Assembly (NCBI GenBank): GCA_964524955.1
Contig: CAZGEP010000003.1
Coordinates: 15-64,014 of the forward strand
Length of the DNA: 64,000 nucleotides
Origin: an uncultured Planctomycetota bacterium
GTDB taxonomy: Bacteria > Planctomycetota > CAZGEP01
Reading direction: 5' to 3'
Shown here piece after piece: positions 1 to 53,632 of this stretch. The notes below the pieces were generated by a model. It saw only the letters and a program-made list of their open reading frames with translations, had not been told where the DNA came from and made no database searches. The translations under genes and the position numbers were made by a program. How positions within the stretch are numbered: the first letter of the stretch is position 1; each line of letters starts with the position of its first letter.

Positions 1-1
1 T

Positions 2-184
2 GAAAGACTGCAGGATATCTCCGAACAGGATGCGAAAGCGGAAGGGGTTGAGGCATTTAAGCCTAATATAGAAGGTCTGAAACCATCCTATAAGGTAGGG
101 TTTTTAAGAAAATGGATGGAGATCTATGGTAAAGACACCGCCATAAACCCCTGGGTCTGGGTAATCAAATTTAAACATATATGA
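2..184 (+). CDS. 3' fragment of an ASCH-like (PUA-fold) domain protein; start lies upstream of the window
   Basis: Open frame 2 runs from the window edge to TGA at 182-184. Translation ...ISEQDAKAEGVEAFKP...YKVGFLRKWMEIYGKDT... resembles the C-terminal 'edAraEGf' block of ASCH domains. Confidence 0.35.
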   Translation, partial: ERLQDISEQDAKAEGVEAFKPNIEGLKPSYKVGFLRKWMEIYGKDTAINPWVWVIKFKHI

Positions 185-360
185 AATTTAAAATCGGAGG
201 CTTCCAGGTGATCATTCATCGTGACCGGCCTATAAACAAAAAACGGGTCGAGCAGGAACAAATTGATCGTGCCCGTAAGATCATGCGTGAAACCTTTCCT
301 GTTGATTATAGTGAGGCGTATTCAAAAAAGATCGCAGATAAATTGATAAAGAAATCCTGA
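181..360 (+). CDS. hypothetical small protein (59 aa, basic)
   Basis: ATG at 181 overlaps the upstream stop (ATGA). Uninterrupted 59-codon frame MKFKIGGFQVIIHRDRP...; below the 60-aa cutoff of the supplied ORF track. Confidence 0.35.
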   Translation: MKFKIGGFQVIIHRDRPINKKRVEQEQIDRARKIMRETFPVDYSEAYSKKIADKLIKKS

Positions 361-364
361 AATT

Positions 365-982
365 ATGTACTACGAACTACATGAATTTATCGAATCGGTA
401 GGCCAGGCCCACTGGAAGGATGATAAACATAAGGAGCATCTGTATTATCGGGATGAAATCAAGCCCTGGCAACGTGATGTGTGGGGATTCCATGTACGTG
501 GCCTTGGCGATCTGTGGTATAACACCCTAAGAATTATTATCGAAAAGATTGATAAGAGTGACTGGGCCTATCGAGCGTTCGATCATACCCTGGAGCATAT
601 GATTCAGGGTAAGCGGTGGCCCGATAAGCTGCAGGAGGGTAAAACCGATCATATAGCAAACAATAGACTCCAGAGAATATGGACCAGGCTGCTGTATAAT
701 ATGAACCTGCGAGCGACTAAGATGTATAGGGAGCAGCAGAGCATGACCCGTGACCCCTGGATCATGCTATATGCCTGTGCCATTCACCTTGGCAGAGATC
801 CCCGGACCCTTCCTTATCCGCAATGGTGGCTATATCGCCCCAGGGTATGGGCCTGGATAAGGGCACTAAAAGGAAAGCGAAACTGTTATCTGTTAATGGA
901 TAAAGTCAAACATAAAAAGACGTTCGTGCAGATATTAGATTATTTTATGAGGTGGAGTTATCAGTTAAACCAACAACTATGA
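365..982 (+). CDS. hypothetical protein (205 aa, W/R-rich)
   Basis: Long ORF packed tightly with its neighbours on the + strand; no recognisable motif. Confidence 0.5.
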   Translation: MYYELHEFIESVGQAHWKDDKHKEHLYYRDEIKPWQRDVWGFHVRGLGDLWYNTLRIIIEKIDKSDWAYRAFDHTLEHMIQGKRWPDKLQEGKTDHIANNRLQRIWTRLLYNMNLRATKMYREQQSMTRDPWIMLYACAIHLGRDPRTLPYPQWWLYRPRVWAWIRALKGKRNCYLLMDKVKHKKTFVQILDYFMRWSYQLNQQL

Positions 983-1176
983 AAAAAGAAGAACTAAAAA
1001 AGCTATTATATTTTGCTTATCTATGGGGACGTGACAATGGAGAGGGAAGGAGCGAGAAAAACTTCAATGATTTCTTGCAAACTTCAGCGATATCTAAAGA
1101 ATTGGATAAAGGTGAACCTGAATACAGAAACGTTGAAACAGAAAAACCTGGAGTAAAACGTGGTAGAACCTGTTAA
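979..1176 (+). CDS. hypothetical small protein (65 aa)
   Basis: In-frame ATG at 979 gives an ATGA overlap with the stop of the previous gene; the ORF-track start at 952 would overlap by 31 nt. Confidence 0.4.
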   Translation: MKKEELKKLLYFAYLWGRDNGEGRSEKNFNDFLQTSAISKELDKGEPEYRNVETEKPGVKRGRTC

Positions 1177-1206
1177 TGAGTACGCAACCTATAAAAACCA
1201 ACAATC

Positions 1207-1455
1207 ATGAGTAATAATTTACCGCCAGGAGTTTCTAATGGAGATATACCGGGCAATAGGCCAGAAAATGTATTATACGAAAAGTTGTTTGATAGATTAC
1301 CTTTTTCTATACAAAATGAAATTGAAAAAGAAACGGAATTAGGTAATCAATTAGAAAAATATTTTCAAAAATTAGTTGATTCCATTTTTACAGAAGAAGA
1401 TGTATTACAAGAAATGCAAAATATTGAACCGTATCTACATGAAAAATATGGTTAA
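1207..1455 (+). CDS. hypothetical small acidic protein (82 aa)
   Basis: ORF in operon context; no motif recognised. Confidence 0.4.
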   Translation: MSNNLPPGVSNGDIPGNRPENVLYEKLFDRLPFSIQNEIEKETELGNQLEKYFQKLVDSIFTEEDVLQEMQNIEPYLHEKYG

Positions 1456-1518
1456 TTAATGAGTATGGGGAATGGTTACGAAAAAGAATATCAAAACAAA
1501 TGAAACCTAACTTGTTTT

Positions 1519-1785
1519 ATGAAAACATCGACTTTAGTTATTATTGTATTGCTGTTGGCTATTATATTACAGAACTATGCCCAGCGATTAGAAACAGCAA
1601 GACATCATGAGCAGACCAGAGAGGAGCTGCTTGAAGTGCTGGCCGAACGCAATCAACTGGACTCTCTCTACCGTGATCATCTGGAACAATGCTCTTTTAT
1701 CTCTAAGAAAGAGGTAGCCGTTGATTCCAGGGGATATTTTTACTCAACATATCATAATAACCAATTGTTAACTCAAAACAATTGA
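1519..1785 (+). CDS. small membrane-anchored protein (N-terminal TM helix, 88 aa)
   Basis: N-terminal hydrophobic stretch TSTLVIIVLLLAIILQNY followed by a charged coiled region. Confidence 0.4.
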   Translation: MKTSTLVIIVLLLAIILQNYAQRLETARHHEQTREELLEVLAERNQLDSLYRDHLEQCSFISKKEVAVDSRGYFYSTYHNNQLLTQNN

Positions 1786-1796
1786 AAAAAGGCTGA

Positions 1797-2324
1797 ATGA
1801 ATCTGATTGATAAATACAATGTTTCCTGTTCAGAGGTTGATATGCAGAATTCAATAGTTGATTATATGATGAAAAAAGAATTCCGGCACCAGCAGGGTAG
1901 GTGGGTCGTTGATTATATTAAAGCAAAAGTATATACAGAAATTCATATACCAAAGATAAATCGCCGGAGTGATGTTGTAGTCAAGCTATCTGATAGGAAG
2001 ATCTTTAATATTGAATGTAAGATCAATAATGTAGATGGCGTTATTAGCCAGGCAGAAGATCACCTTTACTGGGCAAACTACTCATATGTATGCCTTCACG
2101 CCATGACGTACATCCCATCATATCAGATCAAAACAATGGTGGAAAAAGGAATCGGGCTGATGCTATGGCAGGATGAAAATATTCATAGCGATCCTCCACG
2201 GAAGACCTGCCTGGTTGATGTCTTTGGGGCTTCCAAAAGTGGAAAAATTAAAAAAGACCTTCGCAAAAAAGTATTGTCAACACTTCGTAAATACGATGTA
2301 ATACAACAAAAATTATCATTATGA
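1797..2324 (+). CDS. VRR-NUC / PD-(D/E)xK-type nuclease-like protein
   Basis: SDVVVK...RKIFNIECKINNVDGVISQAEDHLYW fits the VRR-NUC pattern D-h...h-E-x-K...G-x-h-S-x-x-Q...W. Confidence 0.45.
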   Translation: MNLIDKYNVSCSEVDMQNSIVDYMMKKEFRHQQGRWVVDYIKAKVYTEIHIPKINRRSDVVVKLSDRKIFNIECKINNVDGVISQAEDHLYWANYSYVCLHAMTYIPSYQIKTMVEKGIGLMLWQDENIHSDPPRKTCLVDVFGASKSGKIKKDLRKKVLSTLRKYDVIQQKLSL

Positions 2325-2569
2325 AAGAAAATTTTGGAGGAATTGGAATTGATGCCACAGGATCTGGCATATCCTTCTCATCAGAAGATGATCATTATAA
2401 ACTTGATGGGATAAAAATAGAACGAGTAATATTAGGGGGAAGCCTATGTTCTCAGAGAGATGTAGATCATCTGATAGATTTTTTGAAAATACTAAAATAT
2501 TCATTTCCCAATATTCGGCAGTATTCACCCACACCTGATGAATGCTACGAAAAACCTTCGGGAAAATAG
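2321..2569 (+). CDS. hypothetical small protein (82 aa)
   Basis: ATGA overlap with the upstream gene; no motif. Confidence 0.4.
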   Translation: MKENFGGIGIDATGSGISFSSEDDHYKLDGIKIERVILGGSLCSQRDVDHLIDFLKILKYSFPNIRQYSPTPDECYEKPSGK

Positions 2570-2638
2570 TATTTAATCCAAATAAATTTCGTATCTTTAT
2601 TTATAATTAACAATTATTATTAATAAAAAATTTCAGCT

Positions 2639-3319
2639 ATGGCAAGAGGACAATTTTTAAAGAAGGACTACCTGAATTGCACCAAGGGAAAATGGAGAAT
2701 GAAGGTCAGCGAGGGACACCCAGATGCAAAAACACGTATTGAGGATAACCCCTCAACAGGTGAAAAGGTAACATTACATGAAGTGGTCTATGATTTTATC
2801 TCCGGCACGGTGAAAAAGATCTGGACCGAAACCCATGAGAAATATGGCTCCAAATGGTGTCTGCAAGTTCATGATGGGGATGATATTGTGGTACTGAATA
2901 TCCCGATGAACTCCGGATACGCCAGTGCAACAATAACCAAGCTGCTAAATGCGGATATCACAAAGCCTATCAAGTTTGTGCCGTATTATTTCGAGGAGGA
3001 GAAGAAATCCCGTATGGTACTCTATCAGGACGATCAGAAAGTGGAGAGTCTATACACCAAGGATAGCCAGAAAGACTTTCCAATATTTCCGGCAAGTGAT
3101 GATCAGGATGATATTAACCTATGGAAGATCCAGGTGAACAAGTTTCTGAAAAATAAGGTTAAAGAAAAGATTATTCCTAAGTTACCTGATCTGGAGAATG
3201 ACAGCAAGGAAATGCTTGATTCCATACCACAGGCGACCTCTCCATCTACCACAGAGCAAAAAGATCAGGGGCCTCAAGATGTTCCCTTTCCGGATGATTC
3301 CGATGATCTCCCTTTTTAA
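2639..3319 (+). CDS. hypothetical protein (226 aa), acidic C-terminus
   Basis: Long ORF followed by an intrinsic terminator (3428-3458); no motif recognised. Confidence 0.5.
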   Translation: MARGQFLKKDYLNCTKGKWRMKVSEGHPDAKTRIEDNPSTGEKVTLHEVVYDFISGTVKKIWTETHEKYGSKWCLQVHDGDDIVVLNIPMNSGYASATITKLLNADITKPIKFVPYYFEEEKKSRMVLYQDDQKVESLYTKDSQKDFPIFPASDDQDDINLWKIQVNKFLKNKVKEKIIPKLPDLENDSKEMLDSIPQATSPSTTEQKDQGPQDVPFPDDSDDLPF

Positions 3320-3427
3320 CCATTTTGATTACCATTCTAATTACATTTTCGTATCTAAAGTTTTTGGATGATAATGGGTTTAAATACAGACATGTTATTT
3401 TTTGACCTGTAATGGTTAATCTTGCCA

Positions 3428-3458
3428 GGGGGGAGGTTTTCGGATCTCCCCCTTTTGG
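3428..3458 (+). terminator. rho-independent terminator (GGGGGAG/CTCCCCC stem + TTTTGG)
   Basis: 7-bp GC-rich stem gggggag..ctccccc with a ~10-nt loop followed by a T-run, immediately after the 2639..3319 gene. Confidence 0.6.
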
Positions 3459-3541
3459 TGTTTAAGACCATTAACGTAGGTAAAAATCACTTATGGGATA
3501 AAAAATTGTAATTTTTTGATGTGTTGTATTGTTAAATATTA

Positions 3542-3549
3542 TAGATTTG
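3542..3549 (+). promoter_or_regulatory. Bacteroidetes -7 box TAGATTTG (TAnnTTTG) with upstream TTTG at 3515-3518
   Basis: Exact TAnnTTTG match. The TTTG sits 23 nt upstream, slightly longer than the usual ~19-21 nt. The same TAGATTTGC occurs again at 3968. Confidence 0.35.
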
Positions 3550-3555
3550 CAGTAT

Positions 3556-3789
3556 ATGAGGAAAGCAATTAAATGTTTCTTTATTAGAACCTTCTATAGA
3601 AAGAGGGTTGTAAGGTTTAAATTGGATGCAGCAGAGTATCTGAAAGCCGGGGATATTATGCACGTTGCTGAAGATAATACCTCATATCAATTTCTTTGCC
3701 TGGGTAGGGGTAAGTTTATTCGCCAAAGTGCGATATCTAAGATATCGGTTAACATATCTCCGGGCAATTTAATGGATATTATGCTATGA
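3556..3789 (+). CDS. questionable small ORF (77 aa from the internal ATG; the ORF track gives 3529..3789)
   Basis: The ORF lies in an otherwise non-coding, structure-rich region and would be leaderless relative to the -7 box; may be spurious. Confidence 0.2.
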   Translation: MRKAIKCFFIRTFYRKRVVRFKLDAAEYLKAGDIMHVAEDNTSYQFLCLGRGKFIRQSAISKISVNISPGNLMDIML

Positions 3790-3929
3790 GATGCGAGTTC
3801 TGTACCATGTACTACAAAAAAGGGGAGTTAAAAAAGCACCTGAAAGTGTGCCGGAACGCCCCTAAGAAGAAGTATTCCCAGGAAGATCTGGACCGGCTAC
3901 ATGAACAGCAATACGGAGGTAGCGGATAA
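3786..3929 (+). CDS. possible small Cys-containing (zinc-ribbon-like) protein, 47 aa
   Basis: MRCEFCTMYYKKGELKKHLKVCRNAPKKK...; has a CxxC...C arrangement and is below the ORF-track size cutoff. Confidence 0.25.
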   Translation: MRCEFCTMYYKKGELKKHLKVCRNAPKKKYSQEDLDRLHEQQYGGSG

Positions 3930-3967
3930 TTTTTTAAAGATTATTTTTTTTATAAGAAATATTTTCA

Positions 3968-3975
3968 TAGATTTG
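3968..3975 (+). promoter_or_regulatory. Bacteroidetes -7 box TAGATTTG (second copy); no canonical -33 TTTG
   Basis: Exact TAnnTTTG lying ~90-140 nt upstream of the terminator hairpin at 4066-4117, with no ORF longer than 15 codons between them. Confidence 0.3.
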
Positions 3976-3981
3976 CTTAAA

Positions 3982-4117
3982 CGTTCATTCACATGATAGT
4001 TTATTTTCCACTCAGCAAGAGATTATGATATTGAGTAGACTCTCCCGGTCATACTCTACTAAAGTCCGATAACAACTTTTACTTCTTGCAGGGTGGATTG
4101 TTGTCGGGCTTTTTTTA
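3982..4117 (+). ncRNA. candidate small non-coding RNA (promoter box to intrinsic terminator)
   Basis: Two hairpins: agtaga/tctact around 4034-4058, and ccgataacaa/ttgttgtcgg at 4066-4107 followed by GCTTTTTTT. Only 11- and 15-codon ORFs lie inside. Confidence 0.25.
4066..4117 (+). terminator. rho-independent terminator-like hairpin + T7 run
   Basis: 10-bp stem (one G-U pair) ccgataacaa..ttgttgtcgg followed by gcttttttt. Confidence 0.5.
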
Positions 4118-4178
4118 TTGCCCCGTCCAACGTTTGTCCCCCTATTAAAATTGGAAGGCCATTCGACCAGGTAATATG

Positions 4179-4300
4179 TTTTTTTTTCTGAGAGAGAGAG
4201 CATCTTTTTCTTTTTCTCTTTTTTTTAATTTTTTTTTTCTGTTTTTCTTTTTCTGTTCTGAGTGGCTGAGGGGATGTAGGGATGTAAGGATGTGGCACAA
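4179..4300. repeat. low-complexity tract: T9, (GA)5, ~70-nt homopyrimidine run, then GGATGTR x3
   Basis: tttttttttctgagagagagag...ctttttctttttctcttttttttaattttttttttctgtttttctttttctgttctg, then ggggatgtagggatgtaaggatgtgg. A fourth GGGATGTAA lies at 4365-4373. Confidence 0.8.
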
Positions 4301-4429
4301 AAGAAAGAAACATAATAGCACGTAATATCATATCTTATTTTTAATCCTTAAATTTTTATGATAGGGATGTAAATGCAGCAAAAAATATATTAAAGCAGGG
4401 TATAAACATATTGTCGGGTTCAGGGACTG

Positions 4430-4567
4430 AATCCTACGTTAAGCAAAAACAAGGTGAGGCGTTGCCATCAGGTGAGTCTGCGACCCTTGAAGCCCAACCC
4501 ATCGGCTCTGCCGTGGGTGGGTAGTTCACTGGTAGAAAAAGGGAGGTGAATAACTTCCCTTTTTTTA
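4430..4567 (+). ncRNA. structured non-coding segment, possible second small RNA
   Basis: Imperfect 12-bp hairpin cccaacccatcggc/gccgtgggtggg (4493-4521), then terminator hairpin gggagg..cttccc + T8 (4541-4567). No ORF. Confidence 0.2.
4541..4567 (+). terminator. rho-independent terminator (6-bp stem, 7-nt loop, T8)
   Basis: gggaggtgaataacttccc followed by tttttttatt, just upstream of the 4622 gene. Confidence 0.5.
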
Positions 4568-4621
4568 TTTACAGTAATTTCATAAATTGCTAAACATTAA
4601 TGTTTAATTAAAAATCATATC

Positions 4622-4912
4622 ATGGCAAATTTGAAAAAAGAAGAAAGAGTATTGAACCACCTGGTTGATAAGATTCATCTTGCAGCCAGAAGGGGAGTTC
4701 TGAACAAAGAGGCCGGGTCCGTTACTAAAAAAACCATCAAGCGTTATCTCCAGGAGCTGGAAGCCCCTGCAGATGATGAAAAGCTGAAAAAAGAAATCAA
4801 ATCTCTCCAGGCATCCAAAGCTGCATTGACAAAATCCAACGATGATTTAAAGAAGAAGGTTGAGAAGTTGGAGGCTGAGAAAAAAGCTGAAAAAGATGCT
4901 GCAAAGGGTTAA
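4622..4912 (+). CDS. Lys/Glu-rich coiled-coil small protein (96 aa)
   Basis: KKEIKSLQASKAALTKSNDDLKKKVEKLEAEKKAEKDAAKG; first gene after the non-coding hub. Confidence 0.5.
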   Translation: MANLKKEERVLNHLVDKIHLAARRGVLNKEAGSVTKKTIKRYLQELEAPADDEKLKKEIKSLQASKAALTKSNDDLKKKVEKLEAEKKAEKDAAKG

Positions 4913-5249
4913 AAAATTTTTTAAATGGGTGATCGACTGGCTATGGACCAGGCCGGTCACCCGAAAAACAGAACCGAAGGCTACAGAGGTGATCCATAAC
5001 TACGAACTCATCGAATACCGTGGGATGAATATCACAATGACAAATCGTGAGAAATTCCTATGGGAGAATCACCTCAACAGGAAACAGAAGAACGATATCT
5101 TAAAGAATCATAAAAGGAAGTTACAAAAAGGCGAATTGATAATGGTCGAGATAAATGGCCAGATGGTCGCCGTAAAAAACAAGCAGTATGGTACTAACGC
5201 ACGAACAGATATCCGGGTTAAAGCCCATGAACAATCATGTACTGATTAA
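4896..5249 (+). CDS. hypothetical basic protein (~117 aa from the internal ATG; ORF-track start 4860)
   Basis: ORF overlaps the end of the previous gene; start ambiguous. Confidence 0.35.
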   Translation: MLQRVKKFFKWVIDWLWTRPVTRKTEPKATEVIHNYELIEYRGMNITMTNREKFLWENHLNRKQKNDILKNHKRKLQKGELIMVEINGQMVAVKNKQYGTNARTDIRVKAHEQSCTD

Positions 5250-5952
5250 ACTATCAAGAAAAAAAGATGAGATAAAGACTCCGGGTGGGGGTAAGTTATA
5301 TATAGATCCCACCTTCGAGGAGGAAAAACATTTTCCCGTTACTGGTTATGTGATCGCCAGACCACGATCACTATTCTATTCCGATAAGATAGGAGATTCA
5401 CATAGTATGCCCTGGAAGACCGACATTGAAATTAAAGAGGGTGATTATGTGATTTTTTATTATATGGCGGTCCTCAACTGCATGGGAACCCTGGATCAGC
5501 CAGGGGGAAACGGGAAGTATTTTAAAGATCCGGATGGCGGTGAGTATATCATGATCACGTATGATAATCTTTTTGTGGCCAAGCGTGATGATAAGATTAT
5601 ACCCTTGAATGGCTATTTACTACTGGAGGCCGTTGAGGATTATGAGTATCGATATCAAAAAGAGAGATTTGATAAGATGGGATTGACCTTGCCGCCAAAT
5701 TATACCCAGGCGTTCTCCAAAGAGGGAGTGGTTAAATTTATCGGAACACCTAACAGGGATTACAGAGACAGAAATAGAAGTGGAGATAAATATCATACCG
5801 ATGAGGGTATTGATATTGAAAGAGGGATGAAACTTATTATTCGCAAGGCAGCTGATATCCCATTGGAATATGAGTATCATGCCTCCCTGGAAGGAAGAAA
5901 GAAATTTTTAAGAGTGCAACGAAGATATATCCTGTATGCAGAATACGAATGA
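5226..5952 (+). CDS. protein with GroES/Cpn10-like N-terminal domain plus ~150-aa extension
   Basis: From the internal ATG: MNNHVLIKLSRKKDEIKTPGGGKLYID...PVTGYVIARP parallels GroES (P-L-x-D-R-V-L-V-K...E-x-K-T-x-G-G-I...G-x-V-x-A-V-G). ORF-track start is 5188. Confidence 0.35.
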
Positions 5953-6592
5953 GATATTTGCTGACAATGAGTTTGATAAGATGATGTTCAACGTGTACCG
6001 GGTACCACATAACCGGTCCGTTTTGAAAGCATTTGCAACCTTATCTAAATTGCCGGAGTTGAAAAAGAGACTCTCCGGTGGTCTGGATAAAAATAAGGTG
6101 CTGCGGTATATATGCTTCATGTATGATAAAAACTCCCCACTGCGTAAGCGATTTCCTAATATTATGAAACGCAAAATTGAATCAGCCAGGCTGGCCGGGT
6201 TCAAATTGGACGAGGAAGGGATCTTTACCGAGAATGTTGAGGATATGCTATCGGGGAAGAACAGATCAGTCAATAAAATGATTATTGCTGTGGTAAGATC
6301 TCATCGTAATGTGAAGTATTCATACCTGGTAAGTATTGAGGAGAGTTTCTATTTTATGATGGAGGAGGTGGTCGGTGGGGAGATGAAAAACATGGGCCGC
6401 CTGAAAGAAGTGCAGAATGAGATTGAGGAGACAGTTTTGGAAATGATGAATGAGGATGATAATCCTCTTATTAAAGAGGAACTGTTTAAGTACATGGAAG
6501 AAGAGAGATTGAACTTACGACCGGAGGATATCGCAAGGAAAAATCGGAAGAGAGATGAAAAATCTGAGGGAGATAATACAGAGGAATCCTGA
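5936..6592 (+). CDS. hypothetical protein (218 aa); terminase small subunit by position only
   Basis: Immediately precedes the putative large terminase; acidic C-terminus; no motif. Confidence 0.3.
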   Translation: MQNTNEIFADNEFDKMMFNVYRVPHNRSVLKAFATLSKLPELKKRLSGGLDKNKVLRYICFMYDKNSPLRKRFPNIMKRKIESARLAGFKLDEEGIFTENVEDMLSGKNRSVNKMIIAVVRSHRNVKYSYLVSIEESFYFMMEEVVGGEMKNMGRLKEVQNEIEETVLEMMNEDDNPLIKEELFKYMEEERLNLRPEDIARKNRKRDEKSEGDNTEES

Positions 6593-8792
6593 TATTGATC
6601 CGAACATACTATTGGATTACGAAGATCCGGAAACACATGTTTTGATAAATAATGGGGATAGAGATCTTATCCCTATACGTATTGACCTACCTAAAGCTCC
6701 GGAGCCAGAGAAGATAATAAACTTCGGTCTGCCGGCAAAAAAGCAGAAATGGAGACCTCCCAGGATGCCTAAGCGTTTGAAATACATCGAAAGGCAACAT
6801 GATTCGATTGATCAGATATGGGATTACCTGGAGGAGAACAAGGATATTTACAGTAAGGAGATCGAATGGATCAATAAAATGTGGGATTACCGGTTGAAAG
6901 GGGCCTGGATCTATATCAACGGTAAGCCTACATATATGGATGGATGGCATTTCTTCTATTGTGGATTCTGGACGATAGATGTTGGGTTGCCATTATACCG
7001 GGATAGAGATCGTAGGTGGTTCCTTGCAGCCCGATTTTTTTACAATGAAACTCGTACATTCAAAGATTTTGATGAGGATGGGAACGCCATACCAAATAAG
7101 CAGGGAGTTTATGAGTATGTAGATACGTATCACCGGTTATTCTATGGGTTCAACTATCCTAAGCATAGGAGGGAGGGAGCGACATACCGGGCCGAATGTA
7201 TCAATTATGAAGTTATCTCTCGCACGGAGAACGCCATGGGGGGGATTCAATCAATGAATGATACATCATCCAGGAAAGCCTTTCGAAAGCATCTGGTGTT
7301 CCCATGGAAAAGATTACCGTTTTTCTTTAAGCCGAATTACGAAGGATCAACGGATCCAAAATCAGAATTATCATTTAATCCTCCGGCCATACGTATATCC
7401 TCCAAAGGATCTCTGGCAATATCAAATTTTGGCCTTGAATCACTGATTAATTATGAGGTCGCAGATAAGGGGGCATATGATGGTGATAAACTGATCTTTC
7501 ATCATGATGATGAGGTGGGCAAGTTAAAGCCTCCCTTTGATTGCTGGGAGCGTCACCAGGTAGTCAAGGAATGTCTGGTCCAGGGGGCTGATATCGTTGG
7601 GTTTTCAATAAAAACCTCAACAGTGGGAGAGATGGAGCGTGGTGGTGGACGGAAATTTGAACATCAATGTAAATTATCAGATTATTATAAACGAACAGCC
7701 AATGGACAGACCGTATCAGGACTTGCAAATCTATTTTTCTCAGCTGCAGATGGGATGGAAGGGTTTATCGGACCATATGGAGAAAGCATTATTAATACCC
7801 CAACTAAAGAGCAAGCGGATTTTATTCGCAGGAAAATCGGGGCGAAAGAATTTTTACTCAACAGGAGAAAAGGATATATTGATGCTGGGGACTTTGAAGG
7901 TTTATCAGAAGAAATCCGATTATACCCTATGTCTTTCAAAGAATGCTTCCGTACCGGTGCCAAGCAATCAGGGTTCAACCTTAGAATTTTAGAGGAGAGG
8001 ATTGATCAGCTTCGATTTGAGAAAAAGACACATACCAGAGGGAATTTCCGTTGGGTAGATAATGTGCGTGATGGGGAGGTGGAGTTTGTCGAAACGCCAT
8101 CGGGAAAGTTTTTAGTTTCTCAACAGCTGGATGAGGGAGAGAGTAATCGCAAAGAATGGGATCCTTATATCGAATCCTGGGTTCCACTTAACACATCCTG
8201 GGGGGCAGCCGGCGGTGACCCGTTCAAATTTATGAAAACAGAGTATAATCGGAAATCAAATGGGGGTGGTGCGGTAATCAGAAAGAGGAATTATTCTAAA
8301 GATATGAACACCAAAAGGAAGTTCGTATGCACTTATAATGTTCGCATAGGAGATAAGAATATCTATGCCGAGGATATGCTTATGATGTGTGTATATTTTG
8401 GCGTTCAGATGTTCCCGGAGATAAACGTTCCGCTGTTATGGGATTATTTTGACGCCAGGGGATATCGGGCATTTTTATTGCACAAAATAAATCCTCATAC
8501 TATGACAACAAAAATTACTCCCGGATCAAACACATCAGATCAGTTTAAGCAGGATCTGTTTTCTGAATATATGACATGGATAGAGAATGAGGCCATAGAG
8601 GAAACGCATGTTGAATTGCTGGAGGAATGTAAGGATATTGGAGGTATAGAGGAGATGCCGGATTATGACCTTTTTACAGCTGGGGGATATGCTCTGATGG
8701 CTACTTTGAGTGTGTATGATGAGATTCAGAAGTTAAGCAGGGAGGAAAAGAGTGTTGATAGATTTTTTAAGAAAAAGGTTTATCGGAGGTAA
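6555..8792 (+). CDS. putative terminase large subunit (745 aa)
   Basis: Size and position directly upstream of portal-scaffold-capsid genes. Walker-B-like KLIFHHDDE and a later G-x-D nuclease-like start (WGAAGGDPFKF). No canonical Walker A seen, so the call is tentative. Confidence 0.4.
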   Translation: MKNLREIIQRNPDIDPNILLDYEDPETHVLINNGDRDLIPIRIDLPKAPEPEKIINFGLPAKKQKWRPPRMPKRLKYIERQHDSIDQIWDYLEENKDIYSKEIEWINKMWDYRLKGAWIYINGKPTYMDGWHFFYCGFWTIDVGLPLYRDRDRRWFLAARFFYNETRTFKDFDEDGNAIPNKQGVYEYVDTYHRLFYGFNYPKHRREGATYRAECINYEVISRTENAMGGIQSMNDTSSRKAFRKHLVFPWKRLPFFFKPNYEGSTDPKSELSFNPPAIRISSKGSLAISNFGLESLINYEVADKGAYDGDKLIFHHDDEVGKLKPPFDCWERHQVVKECLVQGADIVGFSIKTSTVGEMERGGGRKFEHQCKLSDYYKRTANGQTVSGLANLFFSAADGMEGFIGPYGESIINTPTKEQADFIRRKIGAKEFLLNRRKGYIDAGDFEGLSEEIRLYPMSFKECFRTGAKQSGFNLRILEERIDQLRFEKKTHTRGNFRWVDNVRDGEVEFVETPSGKFLVSQQLDEGESNRKEWDPYIESWVPLNTSWGAAGGDPFKFMKTEYNRKSNGGGAVIRKRNYSKDMNTKRKFVCTYNVRIGDKNIYAEDMLMMCVYFGVQMFPEINVPLLWDYFDARGYRAFLLHKINPHTMTTKITPGSNTSDQFKQDLFSEYMTWIENEAIEETHVELLEECKDIGGIEEMPDYDLFTAGGYALMATLSVYDEIQKLSREEKSVDRFFKKKVYRR

Positions 8793-8824
8793 TTAATTTC
8801 ATATATTTAGAGAAACCGCAGAAT

Positions 8825-11158
8825 ATGATTGAGGCATATAACGGATATAAAAATGGTCTATTTCCTTTTCCTAAGCATGATATAGATCCAAAGTTGAAAC
8901 TCAAAAAAGAGTGGCATCTACAATATTCAAAGGCTATTATTGCCTCATGGCTCCAGGGGAAAACAGGTATTGCCTACAATTCAACATTACAATTTAAAGG
9001 TTTGCGACAATTTGCGGATGGCGAACAGCCGCCTGAAAAATATATGGAGATCTTATTGGATGAGGAGGAGTCGGATGCTGGAGAGCGTAAAGGATGGATG
9101 AATGTTAATTGGGAGATTTTTAGTGTGGCCCCAAAATTTATGAACGTTGTTATCGGTATGTTCGAGGAACAGGAATTTGATGTTTCAGCTTCTGCGGTTG
9201 ACCCCATATCGAGCATGGAGAGGGAAGAGAAAAAATGGAGTACGTGGTTTAATTCCGTACATCGGGGTAAACTAAAAGATATTCGTAAGAAAATGGGAGT
9301 GCCTCCTCCCGATGATGGTTATCTTCCCGAGTCAATCCAGGAGCTGAATCTATTTGAGGAGTTGGGAGGATTTAAGTTGGGTAAAGAGATATCAATGGAG
9401 AATGGTATTGATTATACCCTATATATCTCTGATTGGAAAGAGATCAAAAGAAAAATGATCCGGGATTTATTGGCATGTGGGGCGACTGCCGTAAGGGATT
9501 ATGTTGATAAGACAACACAGAAGGTTCGGGTGAAATATTCTGATCCTGAAAGAACAATTATTCAGCAGAGCGAGGTGAATAATCATAAGGATGCCTCCTG
9601 GGGTGGATATATTGAAAAAGTGCCTATTCATGTGTTGCGTATGGAGACCGACCTGGATGAGGATCAGCTGTATGAGATCGCTATGTTGTATTCGGGGAGT
9701 AACAATAATATCGATATCAGCGAGATGCCCAGCGATGATATGAAACTATCAGATGGATCATATAAGTATGATTACATGACAGTTGATGTTCTGGAGGCTG
9801 AGTTTGTAAGTGTGAATAGTGAATATAAGACTAAACGGAAAAATAATCGTGGAGAGGAATATTACTTCGATGAGACGTTTGGTAAATTTCACAATTCCGA
9901 AAAGAAAAAGACTGAGGTACAGAAAAAACATCAGGTTTATGCGTCAAAGCTGATCTTAGGAACGGATTATATCTATGATTACGGATATCAATATGACGTT
10001 CCTCGTCCGGGCAAGAAAGAGGTTAGGTTGTCTTTCCATGTGTATAAGGTTCCCGGGAGATCCTTGATATCAAATATCATCCCTAACCTTGATAACCTGC
10101 AGATTGCCTGGCTGAAATTTCAGAACAACCTGGCTCAGGCATCGGCACCCGGTCTTGCTGTTGAATATTCATCTTTGCAGAATATGCTGTTGGGAGGACA
10201 TAAAGCGGCTCCCATGGAGATATTAAGTGTTCGTAGAGACACCGGTGATCTGATATATCGTGCGACAACACACCGGGGTCTTGTTAATAGCCCCCATGCT
10301 GGCAAACCGGTCGTTGAACTTGAAGGAGGAATGGGGAGATCCCTGGATGAGTTTGTCAGGATATTTGAAATGAATCTTGCTTTTATACGTGAGTTTACCG
10401 GGATAAATAAAATTGCTGACGCCTCTGATCCTAATCCTCAACAAAGTGTAGGTGGATCGCAACTGGCGGTAGCTGCAACAGCCAATGCGTTAAAGCCAGT
10501 CTATTCAGGATATATATCGATCAAAGAACGCACGGCATTGAATGTAGCTTTACGTATGCAGATTGTTATTAAATATAATAAACAGGCATATAAGGGATAT
10601 TATCCCGTGTTGGGACAGTCCGGGGTGAAGTTACTTTCTATTGGGGCAGAGGTGGTTGATGTTGATTTTGCTTTTAAGTTGGAGGCCAGGCCGGATGATG
10701 AGATGAAACAGACTATTCGCAATGCAGCGATCCAGGCGATGCAGCCTGACAGGGATGGGCATGCAGGAATAGAGATGCCTGATTACCTGATGGTCGAAAG
10801 ATTGATGGATTTGGGAAATTTGAAGTTGGCTCAGGCGTTGTTATCTGAAAGGATTCGTAAGAATAAACAGCTGACGATGGAACGCCAACGGGAGAATATG
10901 GAATTGGATGCCAAACGGGAACAGGAAGCCATACAGCTGAAAGAGCAGATGGAGGAGAAAAAAGATGTAAGGGAGAATGAATTAAATAAAGACTTTGAGA
11001 CCCACAAGCATAAATTGAAAATGCAGGAGTTGGAGAAAGAGGGAGAGATTGAGGCGAACAAAATGCAAGTAGAAAAAACGATTGATGCGGTTGTGGCTGA
11101 ACAGGAAAATAAGCAAGAGACTAATTCAAATAAACAGGAAGGCAAACCAAATAATTAA
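8825..11158 (+). CDS. putative portal protein (777 aa) with long C-terminal K/E-rich coiled coil
   Basis: Size, and position between the terminase-like and scaffold/capsid genes; no sequence motif used. Confidence 0.4.
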   Translation: MIEAYNGYKNGLFPFPKHDIDPKLKLKKEWHLQYSKAIIASWLQGKTGIAYNSTLQFKGLRQFADGEQPPEKYMEILLDEEESDAGERKGWMNVNWEIFSVAPKFMNVVIGMFEEQEFDVSASAVDPISSMEREEKKWSTWFNSVHRGKLKDIRKKMGVPPPDDGYLPESIQELNLFEELGGFKLGKEISMENGIDYTLYISDWKEIKRKMIRDLLACGATAVRDYVDKTTQKVRVKYSDPERTIIQQSEVNNHKDASWGGYIEKVPIHVLRMETDLDEDQLYEIAMLYSGSNNNIDISEMPSDDMKLSDGSYKYDYMTVDVLEAEFVSVNSEYKTKRKNNRGEEYYFDETFGKFHNSEKKKTEVQKKHQVYASKLILGTDYIYDYGYQYDVPRPGKKEVRLSFHVYKVPGRSLISNIIPNLDNLQIAWLKFQNNLAQASAPGLAVEYSSLQNMLLGGHKAAPMEILSVRRDTGDLIYRATTHRGLVNSPHAGKPVVELEGGMGRSLDEFVRIFEMNLAFIREFTGINKIADASDPNPQQSVGGSQLAVAATANALKPVYSGYISIKERTALNVALRMQIVIKYNKQAYKGYYPVLGQSGVKLLSIGAEVVDVDFAFKLEARPDDEMKQTIRNAAIQAMQPDRDGHAGIEMPDYLMVERLMDLGNLKLAQALLSERIRKNKQLTMERQRENMELDAKREQEAIQLKEQMEEKKDVRENELNKDFETHKHKLKMQELEKEGEIEANKMQVEKTIDAVVAEQENKQETNSNKQEGKPNN

Positions 11159-14962: not shown

Positions 14963-17900
14963 ATGACAAACGAAGAAGTTTTAATACGGACAAGATTTAG
15001 GCTGGATCTAACACCTAAGAGGGTAGTTTTTACTGATGATATTGATTATACTGTAGCCGGGGATGATATAGATGATTTTTCCGGGGTGATTCGTATTTCC
15101 GGGCCTAATGGATTGATATATGAGAATACGGATTTTGGTGATCCGGATATTGTTCCGGGAACATCTCGGGAGTCATTAATTTTGATAACTCTTCCTGTTG
15201 ATCCGCAAAATGGGTACCAGGTGTATGATGGCACATATACGGTCAAATATACTATTCGTAATAATAGCACGTTGGCCACTTATGAGGAGACCTTTGTGTA
15301 TGGGTTTCATTTTGAAGAACCCACTATGCTGCATGATGTTGACTCTGGACCTTTTACAGCTACCCTTAGAAGTCGGGATCTGACCAATTATGGATCTCAT
15401 ATAGATACTCTTACACGGGTACACACACTTCACTATCCAGAAGGAATAACCCCTTCTCCTCCGGCTGATATCGTTACAGCCTTGGATGATTACACCGTTG
15501 ATCCTGCTTATTCAAATTTGTGGGAGATAACCATTGAAACGAATGTTCTATATATCCAGCCCGATCAACTTGAATATCGGTGGATAGGATCGATCTATAC
15601 GGAGCATTGCGTGTTTGGGTCATGTATAAATGACATGGCCGATGTGCTGGGTATTATGTTTGATCTGTATATCGGATATACCACTACGAACCCGGCTAAA
15701 GCGGCACAGTTTCGTGAACGCCTTATAAAATCCTCAACAGCATATTCTTTAATGGAGATTGCCTGGAGGGCTGGCGATTATGAGGAGGCTGATAAGCAGA
15801 TCAATATTATTCAGGACCAGGTTCAGCTTAGTGGAGTCACATCATGTGTCCAGGGTGGACCCAGCTCAGAGGTTATACCATGTGGGCCATGGGATGGAAC
15901 CGGTATAGCATCACCTGAATATACGTTTAATAATGCCATAACAGAGGTAGCTGGTGTTGTTAGCCTCGGGGGATCATTGATCAATGATACCAATATAGTT
16001 GCCGGAGGATATCATTTTGATGTTTCTGGTGCCTCGGTAGGACATTCGGTGCAGATGCGTATCGATGCTGCTAATCCACATATATTTATTGCAGCTGATG
16101 ATGGATCTAATCAGGGCAAGGTATTGGTCTATGAGAATGGCGTTGATCTGGAGTATAACGATCTGGGAACGCCAGCAAACAATAAGAAATATTCATTAGG
16201 ATCATCGGGGCTGGTTGAGAACGCTGATTACATAAGCGATTATGTTAATCGGTCCCTGGTAAGCAAGGAGTATGTCGATAGCAGCATTCCGGATGTGGCC
16301 GTTGTTTCAGATGCCTCCCTTACGGGTGATGGTAGTGTGGGGGATCCTCTGCAGGTTGCTGTACCCTTCCCGGGATTTACAGATCTAAGTACAGATTATG
16401 GATATAGTGAACCGACACATGCTTTTTCGGAGATTACATCAACACCAACGACACTTGCTGGATATGGCATAACGGATGCTGTTGAGGATTTTCTTGGACT
16501 ATCTGATACCCCATCGGCATATACCGGTGAGGGAGAAAAGTTTCTAAAGGTAAATGCCGGTGAAACAGCAGTTGAGTTTTCGTCTGCATCGGGGTTTGTT
16601 CCTGATACCGGTGGCACGTTTACCGGCCAGGTGACAATATTTACATCGGAAAATTATCCTTTAATTCTTCAACAGGTCGGTAGTGGAGAGACCGTAGGCG
16701 TTGCAGACCCCAGTATTAATCAGATACAGTTTCAAGATAATGATGGTGATGTGCAGGGAGTGATTGGGATCGATGGTACCGGTAATTTAATGTTAGAGAC
16801 AAATGTCTCTGGCCAGCTGGTTCAGGTTGGTGGGGATTTTGATGTGCTTGGTGATATTACTGTGTCGGGGACCGTTGATGGTGTTGACATAAATGCTTTT
16901 AAAACATTGTTTGATGCACATACACATGATTTTGCTGATATTACCAGCACACCAACAACCTTGTCTGGGTATGGTATAACGGATGCAATGTTAAATACGG
17001 CAGAATCATGGCTGACAGAATTTGATGAAAAGATTGGAGTAACAATATCTGATCGCCTGGTTATCGAAGATGTGGCTGATAGTGGAACAAAGAAATATGT
17101 ATCTGTAGGTGAGCTGCCTAATTCAGCTGCTACATTTTTAGCATTAACGGATGCTCCATCCAGCTTTTCGGGTTCTGGCGATTATGTAGTTACGGTAAAC
17201 ACCGCAACAACAGCATTGGAGTTTACTGATTATAGTGGTTTGCACATAACAACCGCAGATGGAACATTGAACGCCTATTCTGAAAAAGTTCTACCAACAA
17301 TCAATGATGTGCTGATCATTGAAGATGCTGCAGACTCATATGAACAGAAAAAAATATACATAGGAAATCTTCCTTCATCTGGTGGAGGATCCGGAGTTGC
17401 CTTGTATTACAGGTTTGATAACACCACGGCAAAAGCAGATCCTACAGCTGGACGTTTTCGATTAAATAACGCCACATTAGCAGATGTGACGGAGATCTAT
17501 GTTGATGATCTGGCCTATAATTCAATTGATATAAGTACTATCATTGAAAATATTTACGTTGGAGATTATTTGTATATCCAGCAGCTGGACTCTACATCTA
17601 ATGTGGTTATTTATAGAGTAACAGCCATAGCGGTTGATGAGGTTGGTTATTATACTGTTGCTGTAGAATATGTTTCTGAAGGTGGTGATGGGCCTGATAA
17701 TAATGCTGATTGTGGTATCATAATTCAGCCTTCCATAACATCGGCCTATACTTTTCAACATTCTATTGAAGAATCATCGGGTATTGTAAATCTCGTTAAT
17801 GATGAGGTCAGCCCTGGTAACAGTAAGCTATATGGAACGGATGGTTCGGGAGCCAAGGGGTGGTTTGATATTACAGGTGATCATGATGCGGTAACTATTG

Positions 17901-20900
17901 GTAGCCCTGCTAATGGATTATCATTATCTACACAGGAATTATCTCTCGCTCTTGCCTCTACCTCAACAACGGGGGCTTTAAGCTCTACCGACTGGAATAC
18001 TTTTGATGGTAAAGCGGAGTTTCCACTTGTTAATTCAGGCGGTACATATCCCACTCCTTCTGCAAGTTTTGGGGATGGAGATACGTTTTTAAGAGAATCA
18101 GCAGATGATGTGCTTGATCTGTATGTTGCTAATAGTAAGATACTACATTTTGACAGCGAAGGGGTTGATTTTGTAAATGGGAAAGGAATAAGTTTTTATT
18201 CTGATAACGGATCGACAAGAATTGCTAATATAACTCCCTTTAGTGATGATATATACTTTTCTCTTGATACAGGTATGCTCTATTTAGGAGGTGATGAAGT
18301 AATAGTTAGTAGTTCAACAGGGTTTAGGGCACAGGGTACTGTAAGATTTGCTGATGGTGCAACAGCAGGGTATTATTTAAAATGTACGGATAGTATTGGC
18401 ACTGCAGAGTGGGCAGCTGTAACTGCTTCACAAACGTATAAGGGTGTCTGGGATGCAGATACCAATGATCCTACCCTTGCTGATGGTACAGGTACAGCTG
18501 GGGATTATTACAGAGTGACGGTAGCAGGTACTCAGGATCTTGGTTCAGGTAATATTACTTTTAGCGTTGGTGATGATGTAACCTATGATGGTAGCGTATG
18601 GAATAGAATACCTGCTGCGACAATAGTAGGTAACGCCTTAACAAAAACCGATGATACTAATGTTACACTGAGCCTTGGTGGCTCCGCATCTACAGCATTG
18701 GTAAACGCTGCCTCTATTACAGTTGGGTGGACGGGAACTCTTGCTGATGAACGTATTGCGAGTGCTTCTAATTGGAATACCGCCTATGGATGGGGTGATC
18801 ATGCCGGGTTATATGATGATTATGATCATTGGAACCTTAAAACCAATAATGTTCACAGAACAACGATAGGATCGGATGGCGACCTGGATATTGTCGCTGG
18901 CACCAACGTGACGGTATCTTATAGTGCTGGTGGTGTGGTGACGATCAGCTCTACCGACACCGATACAGATACAACCTATACGGCTGGAGATGGCCTGGAT
19001 CTAACGGGCACTGAGTTTTCTGTTGATCTGGTTACCGATGGTGGATTAAAAATTACCACTGGGCAATTAGAGGTTGATCTATTGAATATCGATCATGATA
19101 ATTTATTAAACTTTACTGAGGATGAGCATTTTGTCCAGGGAGATATTACAACTGTTGGAACGATTGCTACAGGGGTATGGAACGGAACTGCATTAACGGC
19201 TAATTATGTGCCTGATCATGATGATCTGAACAACGTATCTGCCAATGAACATATTGACTGGACAATTGATCAGGGGGCAACAAACATTCATTCTGGTAAT
19301 TATACTGATACGACATATTCAGATGGACAGGGGATTAATCTTGTAGGTACTGTTTTTGAAGTTAATGCTGGATCAGGATTAATTCAATATTCTACCGGGC
19401 TTTCTCATGATAATACAACCTCTGAGGTTAGTAGTAACAATAGTGGTAGGACATATATACAGGATATTCTTATTGATTCGTTTGGCCATGTGACGGGAAT
19501 AACTACCGCCACGGAAACAGTTGTTAATACGGATACCCATTATTATTTGATTGGCGTTACTGTAAATGCTATTAATGATGTTGATTTTATAGTATCAGGG
19601 GCAGCAGATATTGAGGCAGTAGATTTTAGTCATGATCATGCATGGTCAGATATAACAAGTGGTGTTCCTACTGATATAACTGATATGACCCTCTATGATA
19701 CCGATAATTTAGGTGAGGGGGCAATAAATTTATATTATACAGAGGCCAGGGTAAACGCCAACACAAATGTCGCAGCCAATACAGCGGCCCGGCATGATGC
19801 AGTAACTATTGGTAGCCCTGCTAATGGATTATCATTATCTACACAGGAATTATCTCTCGCTCTTGCCTCTACCTCAACAACGGGGGCTTTAAGCTCTACT
19901 GATTGGAACACATTTAATGATAAGGTTTCGTTTCCCGGGTTTGATTCTTTGCTTAATGATTATGGTTATGTAGAGCCAACTCATGCTTTAGATGAATTGA
20001 CAGATGTCGTTATTTCCGCACCCTCTCCTGATGAAATATTGATATTTAATGGTGAATGGTGGATCAACAACACCTTTGCAGAGGCCGGCATACAGCCAGC
20101 TGCAACTGCGGTAACAACATCAACCTCTTTTGGTGGAGATGTCAGTGGAACATATGATGCTATAGTGGTTGCTGATGATAGTCATACGCACGATACAAGG
20201 TATTATACTGAGACGGAATCAGATGCCAGGTTTGTAGAGGTTGCTGGTGATACGATGAGTGGTACCTTAATTCTTCCATCAATTAGGATAACAACCGGTG
20301 CTACGGATGGTTATTATCTGCGTTCTGATATAAATGGTAATGGTACCTGGGCGGCCGTATCTGCCTCTCAGACTTACAAGGGTACTTGGGATGCAGACAC
20401 CAATGATCCTACCCTTGCCGATGGTACAGGAACGGCTGGTGATTATTACAGGGTAACGGTGGCCGGTACACAAGATCTTGGATCAGGAAATATTACTTTT
20501 AATGTTGGGGATGATGTATCTTATGATGGCAGTGTTTGGGAAAGAATACCTGCAGCAACTATTGTTGGAAATGCTCTAACAAAAACCGATGATACTAATG
20601 TTACACTGAGCCTTGGTGGCTCCGCATCTACAGCATTGGTAAACGCTGCCTCTATTACAGTTGGGTGGACGGGAACTCTTGCTGATGAACGTATTGCGAG
20701 TGCCTCTAATTGGAACACTGCTTATGGATGGGGGGATCATGCAGCTGCTGGATATTTAACTACTCCATATGTTCATCCAGATCATACAGGACAAGTTTTA
20801 TCAAATGGGGATGGAGATACAATTTTAGATGTTAGTGCAATATCAGGTCAAACAGATGATTCTGTTTGTAGTTCAACTGATCAGTTATTATATAACAAGG

Positions 20901-52844: not shown

Positions 52845-53582
52845 ATGAAATGGTTATCTGACTTTTTAGACTGGTTCAATAAGCAGCTGGGGCGAATCAA
52901 AACCATAGCTGTTATTGTCCTGGTAATTTTATTTGCTGTTGCAGCGATCAATAACGGCTGCCAGAGAGAGTACGCCAATGATCTTGTTGAGAGGGTAACC
53001 GGGCTGAATGTGCAGAACGATATTCTCAAAAAAGAGAACAAGGAGATAATACAGGATTTAGATAGTCTTAAAACAGCCTACAGAGAGCTTGTATTGAAGT
53101 ATGAGAGGACAGATAGTATAAGAGACGTCTATGGGGAGATCATAGCTGATTTAAAGTATCAGCGTGATACATTGAAGGATTACATACGAAAAACACCCAC
53201 GAATGAACTGTATGAATGGCTTGATAAAATCCGGTTTCCCTACCAGGGAGAAAAGATTTATAAGTTTAACCAGCCACAGGTTAGTGATATTTATTATGTA
53301 ACCCAAGATTATGATATTGTAAAAGAGGAGAACGAGGTGCTATCTGATGATATTAGTCAATGTGATTACCAGCTTGCGTTAAAGGATAGTCTGCTTAATA
53401 ACAGGATGCAGTCAATGGCGTTAATGAAATCAACTGTTCGAAATAATAATGAGATCATACTCAACCTGGAAGAGAAGGTTGAGGTTACAGAAGATCAGGT
53501 GAAAAGATATAAACGTAAGTTATTCTGGTGGAAATTAGGAACAGGGGTTGCTGTTGTGGGTGGAATTATTCTTGCATTGTAA
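52845..53582 (+). CDS. spanin-like/lysis-associated bitopic protein (245 aa): N-terminal TM ending ...NNGC, coiled coil, C-terminal TM
   Basis: IKTIAVIVLVILFAVAAINNGC ... heptad-rich middle ... WWKLGTGVAVVGGIILAL. Confidence 0.35.
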   Translation: MKWLSDFLDWFNKQLGRIKTIAVIVLVILFAVAAINNGCQREYANDLVERVTGLNVQNDILKKENKEIIQDLDSLKTAYRELVLKYERTDSIRDVYGEIIADLKYQRDTLKDYIRKTPTNELYEWLDKIRFPYQGEKIYKFNQPQVSDIYYVTQDYDIVKEENEVLSDDISQCDYQLALKDSLLNNRMQSMALMKSTVRNNNEIILNLEEKVEVTEDQVKRYKRKLFWWKLGTGVAVVGGIILAL

Positions 53583-53589
53583 TTTTTTG

Positions 53590-53597
53590 TATATTTG
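53590..53597 (+). promoter_or_regulatory. -7 box TATATTTG upstream of the 53633 gene
   Basis: Exact TAnnTTTG 36 nt before the ATG; no well-spaced -33 TTTG. Confidence 0.3.
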
Positions 53598-53632
53598 TTA
53601 TAAATCCAGTATTAATTTAAAAATTAGAAATC

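Follow-up and report, generated by a model that had tools for sequence, protein, structure and literature searches.

A decayed TnpB transposon end and a conserved pyrimidine tract in the pre-packaging spacer of an uncultured Bacteroidota phage

What is contained in a 1.3-kb stretch of almost gene-free DNA that lies just in front of the packaging genes of a phage? The question is raised by positions 3320-4621 (the hub, ~1.3 kb) of a 64-kb stretch of contig CAZGEP010000003.1 (the window; all searches "in the window" refer to these 64 kb). A preliminary description of the hub had listed promoter boxes, intrinsic terminators, a homopyrimidine tract and GGATGTR repeats, and proposed a candidate replication origin and/or pac/cos site which may also encode one or two small regulatory RNAs (sRNAs). 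The analysis described here identified the segment 4360-4529 as the decayed end of an IS200/IS605-family TnpB transposon, not a phage sRNA. With a probability of roughly 85% the hub as a whole is an ordinary regulatory spacer preceding the packaging/structural operon of a ~72-kb phage, a mosaic into which one mobile-element relic has been built.

The transposon right end at 4360-4529

The relic and the sequences adjoining it consist of the following parts.

4355-4359, + strand: TTTAT, identical to the transposon-adjacent motif (TAM) deduced for this IS family and abutting the first base of the relic (4360); noticed post hoc
4360-4524, + strand: 3' remnant of tnpB, 54 codons plus TAG, with the RuvC-III motif DRDVNAAKNIL; an in-frame stop codon lies upstream at 4342-4344
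4411-4529, + strand: scaffold of the omega RNA (right-end element RNA, reRNA) and transposon right end; structure supported by covariation in a 22-copy alignment
4417-4433, + strand: stem 1 of the omega RNA
4450-4454 with 4485-4489, + strand: stem 2 of the omega RNA
4458-4466 with 4471-4478, + strand: stem 3 of the omega RNA
4492-4499 with 4515-4522, + strand: right-end hairpin (omega RNA and subterminal hairpin)
4525-4529, + strand: terminal motif TTCAC, the end of the transposon (...GGGTAGTTCAC)
4530-4545, + strand: predicted guide flank TGGTAGAAAAAGGGAG

The coding remnant reads DRDVNAAKNILKQG...EAQPIGSAVGG*, and the in-frame translation of the window upstream of the right-end motif is DRDVNAAKNILKQGINILSG...EAQPIGSAVGG*. 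When window positions 4357-4521 were compared with the C-termini of 400-aa TnpB proteins, 70% identity was found (E ~1e-19), the aligned TnpB residues being 354-408. There is no full-length TnpB open reading frame (ORF): only profile positions ~344-396 of 396 are represented in the window. The 64 kb gave no other TnpB signal, and the other frames of 3000-4700 contained no further tnpB fragments. Loci of viral contigs that were compared with the window are designated by L-numbers (L030, L147, L153, L186 etc.). The TnpA of L147, used as tblastn query, detected nothing below E = 0.49 in the window, outside of which ~8 kb of the genome lie. A hidden Markov model (HMM) of the transposon left end, run on the window, scored the right-end hairpin only and revealed no left end. 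Having neither a nuclease nor a left end, the relic can neither move nor cut on its own. The hub had been described as non-coding except for two doubtful mini-ORFs; this is largely correct, but at 4360-4524 the 3' part of tnpB can still be read in frame.

The predicted fold of the segment 4400-4567 is unusually stable (z = -4.2). To derive the structure of the omega RNA, 22 diverse copies were aligned. The consensus has four helices with 27 pairs, 16 of which show compensatory changes. Paired bases were found in 95.4% of the alignment cells, as opposed to 36-47% when the 3' partners were slid, and the covariation score was 0.598 versus ~0.1 in the slid controls. On four of five measures none of 500 shuffles matched the observed value; for pairs changed on both sides 9/500 did. 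All 27 consensus pairs are formed in the window copy. The scaffold overlaps the 3' end of tnpB, and the right-end hairpin (4492-4522) is followed by a sharp boundary after ...GGGTAGTTCAC, as seen with ~100 independent flanks. Since the homology of ORF-less mini-elements and of the L030 copy starts at the equivalent of 4411-4413, the length of the scaffold can be estimated as ~118 nt, a typical size for TnpB omega/reRNA scaffolds. The guide is predicted to be the flank just past the right end, in line with the TnpB mechanism (PMC8612924, PMC10055086).

These results modify two earlier proposals. The second structured, terminator-ended segment (4430-4567) is indeed structured, but is composed of two things: the transposon right end with its omega RNA, extending to 4529, and a phage terminator (4541-4567). 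Likewise, of the one or two small regulatory RNAs that had been suggested, a structured RNA is encoded at 4413-4529, but it is an IS200/IS605 omega/reRNA scaffold.

The best match to 4360-4531 was L153 (93.6% DNA identity), which continues upstream as an intact tnpB gene. The two sequences differ at 11 positions. Four of these fall where the sequence is purely coding, and all four are synonymous; the other seven, in the RNA part, either affect loops or bulges or leave the pairing undisturbed. This suggests that the two sequences had largely diverged before tnpB was lost; the relic is thus probably young, without a long history of domestication.

Intact, truncated and miniature elements of the same family

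The pattern GTNGGTNGGTAGTTCACT was found at more than 120 loci in viral contigs. At nearly all of them conservation reaches ~40-120 nt upstream and stops exactly after TTCAC, and ~29 non-redundant loci have, in the same frame, an ORF of ~400 aa which terminates at the TAG inside GGGTAGTTCAC. In L147 this ORF was identified as TnpB by the NCBIfam model IS200_TnpB (446 bits, cut-off 425), by the Pfam domains OrfB_IS605, Cas12f1-like TNB and HTH_OrfB_IS605, and by its similarity to the ISDra2 TnpB structures 8H1J and 8BF8 (2e-80). Elements of the L147 type have, in addition, a divergent Y1 tnpA of 136 aa, and the hairpins at their two ends are homologous to each other. Among 103 non-redundant right-end matches examined, ~29 had an intact tnpB and many had only a 3' part of the gene, which differed in length and in several cases ended near profile positions 344-359. 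True mini-elements, consisting of left end, tnpB promoter, omega RNA and right end, are present at L080, L084/L123, L124, L136, L066 and L159. Genomes of Bacteroidota are the main source of the right-end 18-mer, and metagenome-assembled genomes of Chitinophagaceae and Spirosomataceae contain many copies of it.

The element is also met in phages related to that of the window, as judged by their large terminase (TerL). A blastn search of TerL-related loci revealed a 72%-identical copy with compensatory changes, in reverse orientation, between TerL and portal in L030/L032. This omega-RNA relic (L030 4608-4727, L032 2243-2362, L211 6848-6967) occupies a TerL-portal spacer of ~280 nt, and its 3' end overlaps the TerL stop codon. 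L211 (60% TerL identity) has in addition a complete ORF-less mini-insertion sequence (mini-IS) in its own pre-packaging gap (1232-1586), which is made up of a left-end hairpin, a ~190-nt spacer, the omega RNA and the right end; its flank is different, indicating an independent insertion. The 3' 22-mer of the window element is found unchanged at the end of a contig from a relative with 31% TerL identity.

Two further arrangements were observed. In L069 (~6960-7017), L109, L125 and L135, minimal elements of ~55 nt consist of TTTAT|AAAGGTGAGCGTAAAA and one hairpin fused to GGGTAGTTCAC; they resemble left-end/right-end recombinants across the common hairpin. The contigs IMGVR_UViG_3300004805_000021 (L117, L127, L148, L153) and IMGVR_UViG_3300026311_000001 (L060, L088, L091) contain 3-4 IS copies each, intact and remnant, and in L091 two copies are 116 nt apart.

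The family shares several traits with ISDra2 of Deinococcus radiodurans and ISGst of Geobacillus stearothermophilus: the guide scaffold, overlapping the tnpB 3' end, stops precisely at the right end, homologous subterminal hairpins are located at both ends, and autonomous copies have a divergent Y1 tnpA. The TAM has 5 nt as in ISDra2 (TTTAT here, TTGAT in ISDra2). The window copy differs in that tnpB is reduced to its last 54 codons and that the left end and tnpA are missing. The omega-RNA family has no Rfam model, and the elements are carried largely by Bacteroidota and their phages.

PATEs are miniature IS200/IS605 elements without ORFs that have retained an omega RNA; the omega RNAs which they often encode would need TnpB in trans (Meers et al. 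2023, PMC10055086). Like them, the relic in the window is protein-less, has kept the right end and a complete omega RNA, and would be usable only with TnpB supplied in trans; true PATE-like examples of the same family are found in related phage contigs (L080, L084, L124, L136, L211). A PATE has both ends and can be mobilized by TnpA, whereas the window copy has no detectable left-end hairpin and is thus a one-ended, immobile relic rather than a PATE. As relics and mini-elements are common and PATE omega RNAs have been noted before (PMC10055086), the window relic is of a known kind.

The phage and the remainder of the spacer

The host of the relic was characterized through its packaging genes. 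TerL (6555-8792) and portal (8825-11158) were assigned by PHROG family matches, confirming that the hub is located immediately upstream of the packaging/head module and marks a real boundary. From position 1 to ~63 kb all ORFs of at least 150 aa are on the + strand. TerL is just 26-30% identical to its counterparts in cultured Cellulophaga, Flavobacterium, Maribacter and Tenacibaculum phages, and at best 66-67% identical to those of the nearest uncultured relatives (IMG/VR and JGI metagenomes), which places the window in an uncultured Bacteroidota phage. A crAss-like phage had been the first guess and was abandoned once TerL was compared. The sole near-identical DNA that turned up was the 9.8-kb Logan contig L184, identical to window 1-9484. 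Hub DNA matched none of 50,697 phage records. The window contains no tRNA or tmRNA detectable by search, and Rfam searches, at the gathering cut-off and at E up to 5, returned chance-level matches only.

Between the hub and TerL a 254-aa protein is encoded (5188-5952). It has 36-43% identity to its counterparts in relatives and a weak Pfam match to Cpn10 (GroES-like; E 4e-5, 23.9 bits versus a cut-off of 21.1). The structural region contains two giant + strand ORFs of 2354 aa (14963-22027) and 4783 aa (32495-46846).

Apart from the relic, the following features were located in the hub outside the pyrimidine-rich core.

3427-3464, + strand: intrinsic-terminator-like hairpin, 12-bp stem with a T-rich tail, after the upstream gene (2639-3319)
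3542-3550, + strand: Bacteroidota-type -7 box TAGATTTGC, exact sequence match; candidate promoter
3556-3789, + strand: 77-aa orphan ORF, called as a gene in one NCBI contig of 72,087 bp
3786-3929, + strand: 47-aa orphan ORF with a CxxC...HxxxC zinc-finger-like pattern
3968-3976, + strand: second, identical -7 box TAGATTTGC, exact sequence match; candidate promoter
3982-4117, + strand: candidate non-coding unit, with a hairpin at ~4018-4057 and a long terminator hairpin at 4061-4112 followed by U7
4541-4567, + strand: candidate terminator (GGGAGG, loop, CTTCCC, T7), just outside the transposon end and the last before the first late gene

TAnnTTTG is the -7 consensus of Bacteroides promoters. 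Both boxes of the preliminary description are present, as are its three intrinsic terminators, i.e. terminator-like hairpins with T-runs at 3427-3454, 4061-4117 and 4541-4567, the hairpin of the last occupying 4541-4558. The exact 9-mer TAGATTTGC has four copies in the 64 kb, where ~0.75 would be expected by a composition estimate, and five terminator-like sites were counted at 3000-5000 versus 2.4 +/- 1.7 in shuffles. The first terminator would end transcription of the upstream genes, and the promoter at 3542 would drive two tiny orphan genes, which overlap via an ATGA start/stop. The ATG at 3556 is only 6 nt past the G of the -7 box, implying a leaderless or near-leaderless mRNA. Among 5.8 billion proteins the 77-aa and 47-aa ORFs had no homologues but themselves, and neither matched a protein family; they are plausible but unproven genes. 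A minus-strand ORF of 90 aa (4059-4331), called on the Logan contig, was discarded as low-complexity and not conserved. A second sizeable non-coding gap (53582-54410) contains five TAnnTTTG motifs on both strands (53590, 53713, 54018, 54034 and 54053) and short AT-rich similarities to the hub.

The unit 3982-4117 corresponds to its earlier description: it has a -7 box, two hairpins, a strong terminator and no coding capacity. It folds at -34.7 kcal/mol (z = -2.8) and had no match in Rfam. We regard it as a candidate for a short RNA or a terminated leader of the late operon, in which a transcript from the second promoter (3968) would meet the strong terminator after ~135 nt. The arrangement could be a checkpoint similar to lambda PR'/tR': a short leader RNA would be made constitutively from the 3968 promoter, and an antiterminator would permit read-through of the terminator at 4061-4117 into the packaging/structural operon. 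The succession of promoter-like box, ~135 nt of non-coding sequence and strong terminator would suit such a role, all downstream genes are on the same strand, and L186 has a comparable terminator (GTCGGG plus T-run) just before the conserved block described below. The 3' arm and T-run of the window terminator can be aligned with L186, the synteny being otherwise loose. But no antiterminator was identified, two more terminator-like sites precede the first late gene (4190-4218, of low complexity, and 4541-4567), and beyond the terminator arm the sequence of the unit is not conserved. With lambda PR'-tR' and its 6S RNA leader the unit shares the order of promoter and short terminated non-coding transcript directly before the late/packaging genes. 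On this layout we consider a checkpoint possible but doubtful.

Downstream of the unit there is a segment of different character.

4121-4262, + strand: clade-conserved, single-copy non-coding core, defined by alignment and nhmmer with L185, L186 and L193
4122-4133, + strand: CCCGTCCAACGT block at the start of the core
4162-4171, + strand: TTCGACCAGG block within the core
4179-4187, + strand: T9
4190-4199, + strand: (GA)5
4200-4260, + strand: pyrimidine run of ~60 nt with at least 90% C/T, extending to ~4262
4271-4293, + strand: tandem GGGATGTA, 2.9 copies in 23 nt, reported by TRF; outside the core

The T9-(GA)5-polypyrimidine tract noted earlier was thus found at 4179-4262. It is the only site in the window with at least 90% pyrimidine over 60 nt, and each block of the core is single-copy there. 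In the alignment of the window with L185 and L186 the consensus order is CCCGTCCAACGT, ~28 nt, TTCGAYCAGG, a GA-rich stretch and a pyrimidine tract of ~60-90 nt. An HMM of the core recognized L186 (2e-30) and L185 (2e-28) and, weakly, L193 (0.05), which has the string CTTTCCTTTTTGGTCCCTTTTTCCTTTCT in common with L186. TerL follows the tract at a distance of 2.3-3.0 kb in the window and in these three loci (2.4-3.0 kb in the window, L185 and L193), and each of the four tracts is preceded by a TAnnTTTG box at 100-300 nt. No such tract is present in more distant relatives for which 6 kb of sequence upstream is available, and a gapped-pattern scan of viral contigs gave 120 matches, all by chance and none recognized by the core HMM. 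A tRNA suspected after the pyrimidine tract of L186 was not called by ARAGORN. The preliminary description had made its case depend on conservation in relatives; 4121-4262 proved to be conserved in position and sequence in the closest ones. The core DNA is conserved although neighbouring proteins of the window phage and the core-bearing relatives have only 35-50% identity, which argues for a functional cis-element or leader. Within the hub no other segment qualifies as a candidate for a genuine cis-element of the phage.

Could the core be a replication origin, with a promoter-activated pyrimidine/AT unwinding tract as in T7, or a pac/cos site? It is single-copy and includes the only long pyrimidine tract in 64 kb, its distance from TerL and the upstream box recur in all four sequences, and its place before the packaging genes would suit pac/cos. 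The likeness to a T7-type origin, a promoter followed by a strand-asymmetric T-rich tract, is, like that to lambda, an analogy of layout without sequence or protein homology, no initiator or antiterminator having been identified. The case is weakened further by GC skew, which is positive on both sides of the hub, has no inflection there and reaches its cumulative maximum only at 63.07 kb, so that nothing marks the hub as a bidirectional origin. Convincing iterons are lacking: the 8-mers are repeated 2.9 times, as compared with the ~17-22 bp repeats of iteron-type origins. Family searches did not identify an initiator or TerS gene next to the core, and the tract is absent from the more distant relatives. 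An origin or packaging site can be suggested only tentatively, and within the hub for the core alone. The cumulative GC and AT skew both peak at ~63073, right at the first sizeable minus-strand ORF (63074-63574); nowhere else in the window do skew and strand switch.

Several points weigh against the view of the hub as an ordinary spacer with one relic. Promoters, terminators and omega-RNA expression are deduced from consensus matches alone, and TAnnTTTG is not enriched in the window (53 occurrences versus 54.8 expected). The evidence for the conserved core comes from only 3-4 sequences. About 8 kb of the ~72-kb genome are outside the window and may contain an intact TnpB. The best TerL identity is 67%, i.e. 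there is no close relative for an empty-site comparison, and the history of insertion and deletion is one we infer.

Possible origin and role of the relic

In 28 independent left-end flanks of the family the TAM is TTTAT, and the same pentanucleotide adjoins the relic, where a left-end hairpin was not detected. The ancestor, an IS200/IS605-family element with the Y1 transposase TnpA and the RNA-guided nuclease TnpB, probably inserted 3' of the TTTAT target and was afterwards stripped of its left end and of ~343 codons at the start of tnpB. In this model the empty-site allele would read ...AAATTTTTAT|TGGTAGAAAAAG.... What is left today is the tail that codes for RuvC-III, together with the entire omega-RNA scaffold and the hairpin of the right end. 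In the closest intact genes the homologous GAT-AGA-GAT is directly preceded by ...GTTCAC (L114), ...ATTCAC (L294) or ...CATCAC (L153), the first being the same as the right-end terminal motif ...GTTCAC. The junction TTTAT|GATAGG would fit aberrant excision by TnpA, with cuts at the left-end site and at a cryptic internal site. We offer this route as a hypothesis, given that the similarity was recognized only after the fact and that the surroundings of the cryptic site yielded no hairpin.

If transcribed, the omega RNA would carry the adjacent phage sequence as a guide and could act only with TnpB provided in trans. It might then be retained and used, loading a TnpB from the host, from a co-infecting phage or from the remaining 8 kb of the genome, and directing cleavage of insertion-free relatives that have TTTAT-TGGTAGAAAAAGGGAG, with homing or competitor exclusion as the outcome. 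The scaffold is intact with its 27/27 pairs, a terminator follows the guide region, and ORF-less mini-elements keeping promoter and omega RNA are common; omega RNAs borne by PATEs would likewise need TnpB in trans (PMC10055086), and non-restorative homing between co-infecting phages has been discussed as a theoretical possibility (PMC13565253). But the substitutions in the dead coding part are all synonymous, which points to recent truncation and not to long maintenance, no consensus -7 box is found upstream of the RNA, and the 64 kb contain neither a TnpB nor a second copy of TGGTAGAAAAAGGGAG as target. We consider such use unlikely, and a young, non-functional relic the better description.

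Three tandem GGATGTR copies and a fourth had also been noted; they exist (4271-4293 and, as GGGATGTAA, 4364-4372), but the fourth comprises the Arg-Asp-Val codons of the tnpB relic, and the 10-mer repeat AGGGATGTAA (4277 and 4363) is about what chance would give in 1.3 kb (~0.8 expected by estimate). That the copies are functional iterons, protein-binding repeats or the vestige of a transposon left end is very improbable: TRF reports 2.9 tandem copies and GGGATGTAAGG..CACAAA is similar to the sequence on the inner side of the left end in L147, but the array spans only 23 nt, too short and with too few 8-mers to count as iterons, the left-end HMM gives no match at 4268-4300, the TAM-like TTTAT puts the transposon boundary downstream of the repeats, and L185, L186 and L193 do not conserve them. 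In L193 the terminator closing the equivalent gap (~1420-1455; GGGGGGATGTTTGGTCGGCATCCCCC plus T8) contains GGGATGT, which may be a coincidence.

Finally, the clade might keep one-ended or ORF-less omega-RNA modules as trans-acting guides and, separately, the core might represent a new type of origin or packaging signal. Both ideas seem improbable to us; if the first were true, the window scaffold would be an RNA-only device for homing or exclusion, cutting insertion-free competitor genomes at the hub locus.

As to the phage, the analysis narrows the hub to 4121-4262 as the part worth testing as a cis-element. For annotation, it illustrates that what looks like a "structured sRNA" between phage genes can prove to be the guide-RNA end left by a decayed TnpB transposon; the diagnostic signs are a DRDxNAAxNI tail in frame and conservation that breaks off sharply on the 3' side. 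It also documents an IS605 family of Bacteroidota and their phages with the TAM TTTAT, the right end ...GGGTAGTTCAC and an omega RNA that is not in Rfam. In viral contigs relics and mini-elements of this family are at least as frequent as intact copies, which bears on how TnpB spreads and decays in phages.

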